The notes beneath the pieces were generated by a model. That model ran no database searches and was not told the DNA's origin. It saw only the letters and a list, made by a program, of their open reading frames with translations. Shown one piece after another: positions 60,138 through 64,000 of a stretch of 64,000 nt of DNA (its first letter is position 1; each line of letters opens with the position of its first letter). A program made the translations under genes and the position numbers. The stretch is from assembly GCF_055900595.2 (NCBI RefSeq), contig NZ_CM148325.1. The stretch is one strand, 5' to 3'.

Positions 60138-61466
60138 CTGAGAGATCCCCTCATAATTTCCCCAAAACGTAACCATGTGTGAATAGATTTTGAGTAAGCA
60201 GGGTTGCAGCCACGAGTGAGTCTTCCCTTGTTATTGTGTAGCCAGAATGCCGCAAAACTTCCATGCCTAAGCGAACTGTTGAGAGTACGTTTCGATTTCT
60301 GACTGTGTTAGCCTGGAAGTGCTTGTCCCAACCTTGTTTCTGAGCATGAACGCCCGCAAGCCAACATGTTAGTTGAAGCATCAGGGCGATTAGCAGCATG
60401 ATATCAAAACGCTCTGAGCTGCTCGTTCGGCTATGGCGTAGGCCTAGTCCGTAGGCAGGACTTTTCAAGTCTCGGAAGGTTTCTTCAATCTGCATTCGCT
60501 TCGAATAGATATTAACAAGTTGTTTGGGTGTTCGAATTTCAACAGGTAAGTTAGTTGCTAGAATCCATGGCTCCTTTGCCGACGCTGAGTAGATTTTAGG
60601 TGACGGGTGGTGACAATGAGTCCGTGTCGAGCGCTGATTTTTTCGGCCTTTAGAGCGAGATTTATACAATAGAATTTGGCATGAGATTGGATTGCTTTTA
60701 GTCAGCCTCTTATAGCCTAAAGTCTTTGAGTGACTAGATGACATATCATGTAAGTTGCTGATAGGTTTCCAGTTTTCCGCTCCTAGGTCTGCATATTGTA
60801 CTTTTCCTCTTACTCGACTTAACCAGTACCAACCCAGCTTCTCAACGGATTTATACCATGGCACTTTAAAGCCAGCATCACTGACAATGAGCGGTGTGGT
60901 GTTACTCGGTAGAATGCTCGCAAGGTCGGCTAGAAATTGGTCATGAGCTTTCTTTGAACATTGCTCTGAAAGCGGGAACGCTTTCTCATAAAGAGTAACA
61001 GAACGACCGTGTAGTGCGACTGAAGCTCGCAATACCATAAGCCGTTTTTGCTCACGGATATCAGACCAGTCAACAAGTACAATGGGCATCGTATTGCCCG
61101 AACAGATAAAGCTAGCATGCCAACGGTATACAGCGAGTCGCTCTTTGTGGAGGTGACGATTACCTAACAATCGGTCGATTCGTTTGATGTTATGTTTTGT
61201 TCTCGCTTTGGTTGGCAGGTTACGGCCAAGTTCGGTAAGAGTGAGAGTTTTACAGTCAAGTAAGGCGTGGCAAGCCAACGTTAAGCTGTTGAGTCGTTTT
61301 AAGTGTAATTCGGGGCAGAATTGGTAAAGAGAGTCGTGTAAAATATCGAGTTCGCACATTTTGTTGTCTGATTATTGATTTTTGGCGAAACCATTTGATC
61401 ATATGACAAGATGTGTATCCACCTTAACTTAATGATTTTTACCAAAATCATTAGGGGATTCATCAG
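60138..61466 (-). mobile_element. IS10 (IS4 family), complete 1329 bp copy flanked by 9 bp target site duplication CTTTTTGCC
   Basis: Inside end ctgagagatcccctcataatttccccaaaacg at 60138; outside end (reverse complement ctgatgaatcccctaatgattttggtaaaaatcatt) at 61466; identical 9-mers at 60129-60137 and 61467-61475. Confidence 0.9.
60151..61359 (-). CDS. IS10 transposase
   Basis: 402 aa starting MCELDILHDSLYQFCPELHLKRLNSLTLACHALLDCKTLTLTELGRNLPTKARTKH, full length with no frameshift. Confidence 0.9.
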   Translation of the reverse strand: MCELDILHDSLYQFCPELHLKRLNSLTLACHALLDCKTLTLTELGRNLPTKARTKHNIKRIDRLLGNRHLHKERLAVYRWHASFICSGNTMPIVLVDWSDIREQKRLMVLRASVALHGRSVTLYEKAFPLSEQCSKKAHDQFLADLASILPSNTTPLIVSDAGFKVPWYKSVEKLGWYWLSRVRGKVQYADLGAENWKPISNLHDMSSSHSKTLGYKRLTKSNPISCQILLYKSRSKGRKNQRSTRTHCHHPSPKIYSASAKEPWILATNLPVEIRTPKQLVNIYSKRMQIEETFRDLKSPAYGLGLRHSRTSSSERFDIMLLIALMLQLTCWLAGVHAQKQGWDKHFQANTVRNRNVLSTVRLGMEVLRHSGYTITREDSLVAATLLTQNLFTHGYVLGKL

Positions 61467-61566: not shown

Positions 61567-62238
61567 ATGCAGTACCCGATTAACGAGATGTTCCAGACCC
61601 TGCAAGGTGAGGGTTACTTTACCGGCGTCCCCGCCATTTTTATTCGTTTACAGGGATGCCCGGTCGGCTGTGCCTGGTGCGACACCAAACACACCTGGGA
61701 AAAGCTTGAGGATCGGGAAGTCTCCCTTTTCAGCATTCTGGCGAAGACCAAAGAGAGTGATAAGTGGGGGGCGGCGAGCAGTGAAGATTTGCTGGCTGTC
61801 ATTGGTCGTCAGGGATACACCGCGCGGCATGTGGTGATTACGGGTGGTGAGCCTTGCATTCATGATTTGCTGCCACTGACTGACCTGCTCGAAAAGAACG
61901 GTTTTAGCTGCCAGATCGAAACCAGCGGTACTCATGAAGTACGCTGCACGCCGAATACCTGGGTTACCGTATCGCCAAAGCTGAACATGCGCGGCGGCTA
62001 TGAAGTGTTGTCACAGGCACTGGAACGAGCCAACGAAATCAAGCATCCAGTGGGACGCGTACGTGATATTGAAGCACTGGATGAACTACTGGCAACGCTG
62101 ACCGATGATAAACCACGAGTCATTGCACTGCAGCCAATTAGCCAGAAGGACGATGCCACACGTTTGTGCATTGAAACCTGTATTGCGCGTAACTGGCGTT
62201 TATCGATGCAAACACATAAATATTTAAATATTGCCTGA
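61567..62238 (+). CDS. queE: 7-carboxy-7-deazaguanine synthase (radical SAM)
   Basis: MQYPINEMFQTLQGEGYFTGVPAIFIRLQGCPVGCAWCDTKHTW; 223 aa. Confidence 0.9.
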   Translation: MQYPINEMFQTLQGEGYFTGVPAIFIRLQGCPVGCAWCDTKHTWEKLEDREVSLFSILAKTKESDKWGAASSEDLLAVIGRQGYTARHVVITGGEPCIHDLLPLTDLLEKNGFSCQIETSGTHEVRCTPNTWVTVSPKLNMRGGYEVLSQALERANEIKHPVGRVRDIEALDELLATLTDDKPRVIALQPISQKDDATRLCIETCIARNWRLSMQTHKYLNIA

Positions 62239-62399
62239 TTAAACATTTATAAGCGTTATAAATGGGTGGAACCTGTAAAGACTTCCACTCATTTATATTC
62301 TTTGTCGCCTCTGAAAAAACTCCATTTTGCCCATCCTGGACTAATCATTATCATTCTCTACAAATTCTCTGGCGTTAATTTTTCGTTGGAGTGAAAATT

Positions 62400-62576
62400 A
62401 TTGCGGTAAAGTTTGGTAGATTTTAGTGGGTATAGAGTTATTTTAAATATTTACTTTTTTAATCAATGGATTAAGTGTTCTTTAACATAATGGATGTGTT
62501 GTTTGTGTGATCCTGTAAAGTTGGTAGATTGTGACTGGCTTAAAAAATCATTAATTAATAATAGGTTATGTTTAGA
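62400..62576 (+). promoter_or_regulatory. CRISPR leader (AT-rich) for the type I-E array
   Basis: AT-rich sequence ending ...tggtagattgtgactggcttaaaaaatcattaattaataataggttatgtttaga directly 5' of the first repeat; partial internal duplication of cctgtaaagtt(t)ggtagatt. Confidence 0.55.
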
Positions 62577-63154
62577 GAGTTCCCCACGTCAGCGGGGATA
62601 AACCTTGCTCGATGCGGGCGTTAACTTTTTTATAGGCGAGTTCCCCGCGCCAGCGGGGATAAACCGCGTAATTTTGTACGCTCAACACGTAACTAAATGA
62701 GTTCCCCGCGCCAGCGGGGATAAACCGATCACCAGTGCGGATTGTTCAAATAGTGCCTGGAGTTCCCCGCGCCAGCGGGGATAAACCGAGAGCTATATCG
62801 CAGCGTTTAACTGGATGACAGAGTTCCCCGCGCCAGCGGGGATAAACCGGTGTTTTTTGCCATCTGAACTGTGGCACGCCGGAGTTCCCCGCGCCAGCGG
62901 GGATAAACCGTCTATAATGTCTCATCCGGGGTTAATTCAATCGAGTTCCCCGCGCCAGCGGGGATAAACCGATCAGCCCCACATCCGGTTTTGCCAGCAA
63001 CGTGAGTTCCCCGCGCCAGCGGGGATAAACCGTAAGATGATCTCACGGAATTGAACGAACTACGGAGTTCCCCGCGCTAGCGGGGATAAACCGGACACAG
63101 AGCGCCGCTATAGCGCCTATGCCAAGAGTTCCCCGCACCAGCGGGAATAAACCA
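62577..63154 (+). CRISPR. Type I-E CRISPR array, 10 repeats and 9 spacers of 32 nt (61 bp period)
   Basis: Repeat GAGTTCCCCGCGCCAGCGGGGATAAACCG at 62638, 62699, 62760, 62821, 62882, 62943, 63004; degenerate copies at 62577, 63065 and 63126. Confidence 0.9.
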
Positions 63155-63608
63155 CCATATAACCCGTTATCTCTTTCTCAAGTTTTTATATTAGCAGTAC
63201 TCGTATTAAGCAACATATCCACGTAACACCTCATGTTCAAAATAGCTCTCCATATATGAGAAGTTCACAATTATCGATACAAAAAATCAAATTTAATTAA
63301 AGTGTTAGTTGTATAATACTTAAATCATTAAGAAATTATCATATATTATTTTTTTAATATTGAATTGATGTTTGTTAATTTTTTCTTTAGGATAATAGTT
63401 TGTTTTTTAAGCTTATTATTCATTGATTAAGTAATAAATCTGGAAATTTGTCTTTGTTTTGAGGCTAATGAGTGATTTTACATAATCGCCTCTATAGGCT
63501 GTTGATGAATAGTTCTTATGAATAAAGATATCCAGTTCATACTTTAAGTGAAAATTGATAAAGTGCGATTCGTATTGTCTTTTATTCTAATGACATCGAG
63601 TGTAGTTA

Positions 63609-63746
63609 ATATTCCTTGTAAAAACAGGGATAAACCGAACTAGTTAAAGTTTTTATTATGTTCCCTGCATCAGCGGGGATAAACCGGACTTGTTATCATT
63701 TTTTAAGTTGTCGAACTTATGTTCCCCGCGCCAGCGGGGATAACCA
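63609..63746 (+). CRISPR. Second, degenerate mini-array (3 repeat-like units) preceded by its own AT-rich leader
   Basis: ...cagggataaaccg / atgttccctgcatcagcggggataaaccg / 32 nt spacer / atgttccccgcgccagcggggataacc; AT-rich 63160-63600 upstream. Confidence 0.6.
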
Positions 63747-63792
63747 TTCAGGTATGTTCAGGCCGGGCAGTTTCCCGCCCGGCCTTCCTCAC

Positions 63793-64000
63793 TTACGCAT
63801 TCGACCAGCTCTGGATCGAATCTTCATTCCCCAGCTCACCATGCATCACTTCATACGATTTTTTCAGGATCACATCAGTGTGCTTGGTTAGGTCTTTGAA
63901 AATGCCTTTATTCATCGCGTCGTAGCGTTTGGCGTTGCTCTCAACAGGCATAAAGATATCTTTCACGCGAACCATTTTGTCGACAGCCGTTGCGTAATCC
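63793..64000 (-). CDS. ygcE: C-terminal end of a gene running off the window edge (probably FGGY-type sugar kinase YgcE)
   Basis: Open minus-strand frame from the window end to the stop at 63793; hairpin ggccgggcagtttcccgcccggcc downstream; identity inferred from synteny only. Confidence 0.45.
   Translation of the reverse strand, partial: DYATAVDKMVRVKDIFMPVESNAKRYDAMNKGIFKDLTKHTDVILKKSYEVMHGELGNEDSIQSWSNA

Follow-up and report, generated by a model that had tools for sequence, protein, structure and literature searches.

The CRISPR array at 62577-63154 of the window (the whole 64,000-nucleotide stretch of DNA analysed) is CRISPR2.3 of the E. coli CRISPR-II locus. Its variant first repeat is best read as a circulating repeat allele, which we term Rv, placed beside the leader probably by recombination, with no spacer acquired since. 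We put the probability of this reading at roughly 0.8.

An ordinary CRISPR-II array

The array comprises ten type I-E repeats (R1-R10) and nine 32-nt spacers (S1-S9) on the + strand at 62577-63154. A search with a 28-nt repeat query, in which up to three mismatches were tolerated and 100 shuffles served as the chance control, placed copies on the + strand at 62577, 62638 and so on to 63126. The 61-nt spacing recurs unchanged nine times, the copies differ from the 28-nt repeat by 0-2 mismatches, and the chance expectation was 0.00 copies against the ten observed. All ten copies belong to type I-E by their match to the 28/29-nt repeat GWGTTCCCCGCGCCAGCGGGGATAAACCG, which is given as the E. coli type 2 repeat consensus in Table 1 of PMC4524480 and is seen in K-12 too. 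The feature is a type I-E CRISPR array with E. coli type 2 repeats. Its start is fixed at 62577 by the preceding leader end, ...AATAGGTTATGTTTAGA, which is the same as in K-12.

Scored against the 29-nt consensus GAGTTCCCCGCGCCAGCGGGGATAAACCG, 7 of the 10 repeats are perfect. The original prediction of a type I-E array with its leader on the 62577 side is borne out by the repeats, the spacers and the K-12-like leader, and the nine 32-nt spacers that it listed are exact. We also confirm its seven perfect internal repeats, with one substitution in the penultimate repeat (C14T) and three in the last (G12A, G21A, G29A). The same terminal repeat is found in strain 2013C-4282. The features of the region are as follows.

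61567..62238, + strand: queE (ygcF), a 223-aa open reading frame; queE is annotated at the same place in relatives and in K-12
62239..62576, + strand: AT-rich leader (leader 2.3), which aligns with the K-12 leader
62577..62605, + strand: repeat 1, allele Rv, with G10A and C13T; the T of G29T (62605) is PAM-derived and belongs to spacer 1
62606..62637, + strand: spacer 1, the newest; no target found
62638..63064, + strand: repeats 2-8 and spacers 2-8; each of these repeats is canonical and matches the consensus perfectly
62728..62759, + strand: spacer 3, matching a prophage ParB/Srx-domain gene
62789..62820, + strand: spacer 4, matching rha (Rha family regulator) of temperate phages
63065..63093, + strand: repeat 9, with C14T at a loop position
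63094..63125, + strand: spacer 9, the oldest, common to most of the 48 genomes with any window spacer
63126..63154, + strand: repeat 10, terminal, with G12A, G21A and G29A
63609..63746, + strand: CRISPR2.2 remnant, three degenerate repeats without a leader, about 0.45 kb past the main array
63793..64000, - strand: 3' end of ygcE, which exits the window; mapped from the ygcE annotation in the locus of a relative (L001)

The order of elements in the window is queE, leader, CRISPR2.3 array, CRISPR2.2 remnant and ygcE, with 0.45 kb of AT-rich DNA separating the array from the remnant. In the published layout and nomenclature of CRISPR-II, CRISPR2.3 lies between ygcF (queE) and ygcE with its leader on the queE side and CRISPR2.2 about 0.5 kb off (PMC3903273); the name CRISPR2.1 refers to the array that adjoins the cas-E genes in the iap-cysH interval (PMC3903273, PMC3737337). 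Of the 5,426 complete E. coli genomes searched, 5,420 match the CRISPR-II region, and the annotations under the match include queE, CRISPR and ygcE. This is an ordinary E. coli CRISPR-II array, already annotated by RefSeq in close relatives. An Rfam scan of 62200-63800 returned no CRISPR family, although the release may hold no model for this repeat; its sole result was a sub-threshold nadA match of 18.4 bits, where the gathering score is 37.5.

CRISPR-II of K-12 MG1655 is collinear with the window, sharing the flanking genes, the last 61 leader nt, the 61-nt period and the CRISPR2.2 remnant, and the terminal junction of ...ATAAACCA with CCATATAACCC is identical in the two. In contrast, all nine spacers differ, and the window repeats are 'A-type' (GAG...) whereas those of K-12 are mostly 'T-type' (GTG...). 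The window is also unlike K-12 in having Rv as R1 and TCCTGT in place of TACTAT at -66 to -61 of the leader.

Acquisition requires the 60 bp of leader adjoining the repeat (PMC3384332). The final 61 nt of the window's leader are those of K-12, the nearest differences lying at -62 and -65, and repeat positions 1-9 are unaltered; the leader-repeat junction is therefore intact. Further upstream, the leader hexamer at -66 to -61 (within 62508-62516) reads TCCTGT, where K-12 has TGaTACTAT, an extended -10-like element. Positions -61 to -66 of the leader are the -10 box needed for array transcription (PMC3384332). The window hexamer lacks the A at the second position and occurs also in loci L005, L008, L009, L018 and L020; as judged from its sequence, transcription of the array may be weak. 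Promoter and terminator scans of the region gave counts not above those of shuffles, and one flagged terminator-like element, a short GC hairpin followed by a T run, lies in spacer 1 (62606-62630) on the transcribed strand.

Two further observations concern the flanks. The CRISPR2.2 repeats are spaced 49 and 61 nt apart, the K-12 copy is nearly base-for-base identical, and the sole 32-nt spacer of the remnant has identical copies in other E. coli chromosomes. Upstream, a 1,329-bp IS10 copy (60138-61466) begins with CTGAGAGATCCCC... and ends with ...GGGGATTCATCAG, is flanked by a 9-bp target duplication, CTTTTTGCC, and has a - strand gene for a 402-aa IS4-family transposase. The insertion lies 100 bp upstream of the queE start codon; relatives that are 99.96% identical lack it.

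The first repeat is a circulating allele

The original prediction counted three substitutions in R1. The unit duplicated at acquisition is 28 nt long, and the 29th base is the last PAM base, inserted with the spacer (PMC3737337). Because position 29 arrives with the spacer, the true substitutions in R1 are two: G10A and C13T stand as predicted, and G29T is instead the PAM-derived base that entered with S1. K-12 behaves likewise, its second repeat ending in T and its terminal repeat having A29. A crRNA handle with G-1T keeps full interference (PMC3764190).

Among 5,426 complete E. coli genomes, 118 contain the exact 28-mer of Rv, in 417 copies altogether, every one of them chromosomal (median 4 per genome). 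Most of these 118 genomes belong to one clonal array family, so that the independent evidence amounts to four families. Among GTDB species-representative genomes there were 0 matches, and among metagenome contigs a single one, with the same array as strain MDR_56. Across the databases searched, GTDB representatives included, matches to Rv are thus confined to E. coli genomes and that one metagenome contig. A full-text literature search found no mention of the variant sequence.

The leader haplotypes that carry Rv number three or more, and arrays change from Rv to canonical repeats at five different spacers. Rv stands directly before S9 in strains 042, ECA64 and VCSW5, whose newer repeats are canonical; the terminal repeat of L005 also has A10 and T13. 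Judged from this distribution among genomes, Rv is an allele that was already circulating in E. coli, not a product of local decay. Template switching at a quasi-palindrome was considered as a recurrent source of Rv and rejected, as A10 worsens the palindrome and T13 lies in the loop.

Placement of Rv next to the leader

It is implausible that the same double substitution arose independently five times, and we therefore infer that the junction between Rv and S1 is a recombination product. Rv most likely reached the R1 position by recombination within repeats, and two routes may be envisaged. A deletion would join the first repeat of an Rv array to the canonical repeat before S1, with the crossover 3' of position 13; alternatively, the segment from leader to Rv would have been imported from another strain. 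The data are compatible with both deletion and import. The loci L008 and L009 carry the window's leader haplotype (3-4 differences per 330 nt), yet their downstream flank differs (30-32 of 58 variable sites). Strain 2013C-4282 combines the terminal repeat of the window with a leader of the window type, S8 and an S9 that differs by one base, but has only canonical repeats. Vertical descent with deletion alone can explain the evolution of E. coli arrays (PMC4524480), a result that fits the deletion route and not the import route; exchange at these loci has, however, been argued for (PMC3903273).

A related array deserves mention in its own right. The 15-spacer array of 2013C-4282 contains as an internal spacer (at L018 1106-1166) the first spacer of K-12 CRISPR2.3, GCAAAAACCGGGCAATCGCAAAAAGGCGTAAT; the remainder of the two arrays differs.

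A variant of the recombination reading places the crossover one repeat further on. S1 would have been acquired in an Rv array, as Rv-S1-Rv, and a later crossover within the 5' portion of the second repeat would have transferred this unit onto a canonical S2-S9 array. S1 is indeed seen behind Rv only, with a canonical repeat before S1 in no genome, and the mosaic flanks show that exchange takes place at the locus. However, an Rv-S1-Rv array is absent from the 5,426 genomes and from the metagenome contigs, and the scheme requires one event more than a crossover inside R1. We therefore consider it unlikely, though the least unlikely of the alternatives, and prefer a crossover within R1 itself.

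No acquisition since the junction formed

During acquisition the new repeat is copied from repeat 1 (PMC3384332), and this is the basis for reading the age of the junction from the array. R2 is canonical; therefore no spacer has been acquired since the Rv-S1 junction formed. The segment from leader through Rv to S1 is found at 100% identity in eight complete RefSeq genomes (E200086, E400634, E500002, E600003, 100117, 100248, AST85 and Z0117EC0005), which come from Mali, India, Japan and Korea, with S1 first in every one. A canonical repeat followed by S1 is absent among the 5,426 complete E. coli genomes. The comparison of R1 with other strains that the original prediction had proposed thus found R1 unchanged in all eight relatives. 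Its conclusion that there has been no recent acquisition holds, since R2 is canonical and S1 is first in the relatives, but its reasoning does not.

The eight relatives are otherwise close to the window. E200086 is 99.96% identical across 19.2 kb, and in all eight the CRISPR2.3 leader, Rv as R1, S1, S2, S3, S7, S8, S9 and the terminal repeat are identical to those of the window. They lack the IS10 upstream of queE. Within the array, S2, S3, S7 and S8 are thus common to the window and all eight genomes, and the only differences are the lack of S4-S6, which occur in no complete E. coli genome, and one extra spacer unique to Z0117EC0005, between S1 and S2. By these comparisons, the lineage has changed only by spacer loss since the junction formed.

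The window contains no cas genes, by tblastn at E<=1e-3 with seven intact Cas proteins and a cas3 fragment of a close relative. The original prediction was right on this point, but the absence merely reflects where the window ends: the window stops 850 nt after the array, and the operon lies about 17.5 kb further on in relatives. In E200086 a distance of about 18.4 kb separates the array end from the start of the cas3 remnant, which puts the remnant some 17.5 kb outside the window, and the cas operon of close relatives lies between cysH and iap. In Z0117EC0005, the only operon fully inspected, cas1, cas2, cas6e, cas5, cas7, casB and casA are annotated as intact. In 3 of the 3 relatives examined, cas3 is a frameshifted 1.2-kb remnant adjoining IS421. 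By analogy with these relatives, the array of the window genome would be inactive at present. The IS421 copies beside the cas3 remnant of AST85 (L014 37358-38470) and Z0117EC0005 (L004 37583-38695) have opposite annotated orientations and slightly different offsets, and may reflect an inversion or independent events.

In operation, the array would be served in trans by the cas-E operon. Transcription would be driven from the leader, Cas6e would cut at the base of each repeat hairpin, and Cas1-Cas2 would insert new spacers at the junction of leader and R1, duplicating R1 each time. A decaying orphan array was considered as a description and rejected: the proximal leader is intact, 7 of the 10 repeats are perfect, and the relatives retain cas1, cas2 and the Cascade genes.

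Rv as a template for acquisition

To see how Rv behaves in the first position, we read Rv blocks from parsed arrays (the L-numbered loci of complete genomes and one metagenome contig). Rv usually occurs in contiguous blocks adjoining the leader, with a different spacer behind each copy and older, canonical repeats beyond. The blocks hold 2 copies in L008, 3 in L009, 3-6 in one widespread family (L003, L006, L010, L022-L026) and 11 in L005 (strain 2020CK-00188). The five newest Rv copies of L005 bear an extra C28T in nested layers, as expected from serial copying of R1. A second comparison bears directly on the window: L027 has one Rv followed by canonical repeats, and L008 is the same array with two Rv copies and one added spacer at the leader end. 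As read from the two arrays, they are a before/after pair that starts from the window's configuration. Altogether we infer that Rv served as the template in at least 17 acquisitions, spread over four array families that are unrelated to one another. Rv has been duplicated across many acquisitions and therefore does not block acquisition.

The original prediction had called the first repeat degenerate and pointed to the dependence of acquisition on the leader-repeat junction. A reading of the variant repeat as decay, or as a disabled integration site, is not supported: Rv has been copied through those acquisitions in four families, and the leader-repeat junction is intact. The broader proposal would be that R1 mutated randomly in an unused array and that the damaged first repeat itself blocks acquisition. 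Some features of the window agree with it, namely that R1 alone is variant and R2 canonical, that G10A weakens the hairpin (-15.1 to -9.7 kcal/mol) and falls in the IR1 anchor motif (PMC5039180), and that cas3 of the relatives is broken. Yet 118 genomes have the identical two-base change, which occurs at several array positions and with three or more leader haplotypes. Such a double substitution is very unlikely to have arisen independently, arrays elsewhere have duplicated Rv in at least 17 acquisitions, and T29, the third 'mutation', is part of the spacer (PMC3737337). Local decay is accordingly improbable. As for an artefact in repeat 1, whether a sequencing error or the off-register alignment against which the original prediction cautioned, nothing speaks for it beyond that caveat, and it is exceedingly improbable, as the register is that of the K-12 leader/repeat junction and the same R1 occurs in eight independently sequenced genomes.

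A circulating allele may nonetheless affect the rate of acquisition. Multi-base mutation or replacement of the IR1 motif CCCCGCG brings adaptation down about 100-fold, and alterations between the inverted repeats reduce it by no more than 3-fold (PMC5039180). G10A falls inside this motif, and C13 lies between the inverted repeats. Rv could slow acquisition through G10A in IR1, but the population record of Rv blocks points to tolerance, and any effect would be modest at most. For the biochemistry of adaptation, the population data suggest that the IR1 anchor tolerates G10A.

The experimental basis for repeat-1 copying and for the 60-bp leader requirement is provided by assays in BL21-AI (PMC3384332, PMC3737337). 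The 'array I' of that strain (CRISPR2.3; the Yosef and Goren adaptation assays) is like the window's array in its locus and its A-type repeat. The assays differ from the situation here in that Cas1-Cas2 were plasmid-borne and the first repeat was canonical or engineered, not G10A/C13T (PMC5039180).

Rv stands before the oldest spacer in some strains and is the first repeat in others. A wider proposal, which we hold only tentatively and think rather doubtful, is that a single change in the IR1 "molecular ruler" anchor is tolerated by Cas1-Cas2 over many acquisitions with normal 28-nt repeats, and that recombination between repeats, by placing an old repeat at the leader, would "reset" arrays time and again, each reset being followed by re-expansion. 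More generally, the succession of repeat alleles in an array preserves the state of R1 at each acquisition and so dates the last acquisition relative to the arrival of the allele. As a lesson in method, a leader-proximal variant repeat should be checked against the repeat-allele pool of the species before decay is called.

Two other arrays are of note here. The CRISPR2.1 array of Z0117EC0005 (L011 7687-8387, beside cas2) has C14T in its nine leader-nearest repeats and not in its three oldest, and by this gradient is a second example of a first-repeat mutation spread by acquisition; R9 of the window has the same C14T as an isolated copy. The L005 array (1375-2195, 2020CK-00188; also L016) contains a tandemly duplicated spacer, TGACCAAACTTGTG..., and the 2020CK-00188 genome has lost its cas operon except for a partial cas3.

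Repeat folding and crRNA processing

The cleavage site of Cas6e is the base of the repeat hairpin. R2-R9 have a predicted fold of -15.1 kcal/mol, with the 7-bp stem and tetraloop of Cas6e recognition; C14T in R9 leaves this value at -15.1 kcal/mol, and the hairpin of R10 is predicted to be weakened. As the original prediction had proposed, one R1 substitution disrupts the stem: G10A creates an A.C mismatch, and the predicted energy of R1 changes from -15.1 to -9.7 kcal/mol, with the lower five base pairs of the hairpin retained in the predicted fold. R1 contributes to the S1 crRNA at its 5' end only, and the modelled fold suggests that Rv may affect processing at that end.

Spacer targets

The search of spacers against phage, plasmid and host genomes, also proposed with the original prediction, matched S3 and S4 to prophage and phage genes and found no self-target in the window, where no off-array match occurred at up to 8 mismatches. 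For the other seven spacers, phages, plasmids, viral contigs and the non-array parts of E. coli genomes gave no match; the viral-contig scans used the 21-nt PAM-proximal part of S1, S2, S5, S6, S7, S8 and S9 and gave 0 matches for each, and S1 likewise had 0 matches in metagenome contigs.

S3 matches at 32/33, with an ATG PAM, a ParB/Srx-domain gene beside terminase genes in a prophage of STEC384 and STEC379. S4 matches at 30/33, with an AGG PAM, the rha gene of the temperate Escherichia phage 2B8; by BLAST it also matches phiv205-1 and PhiR70_1 at 32/35, and prophage Rha genes in more than 200 E. coli genomes. The interference-proficient PAMs are AAG, ATG, AGG and GAG (PMC3764190), and those of S3 and S4 are both within these four. 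At least one window spacer is contained in 48 genomes, most of which have S9.
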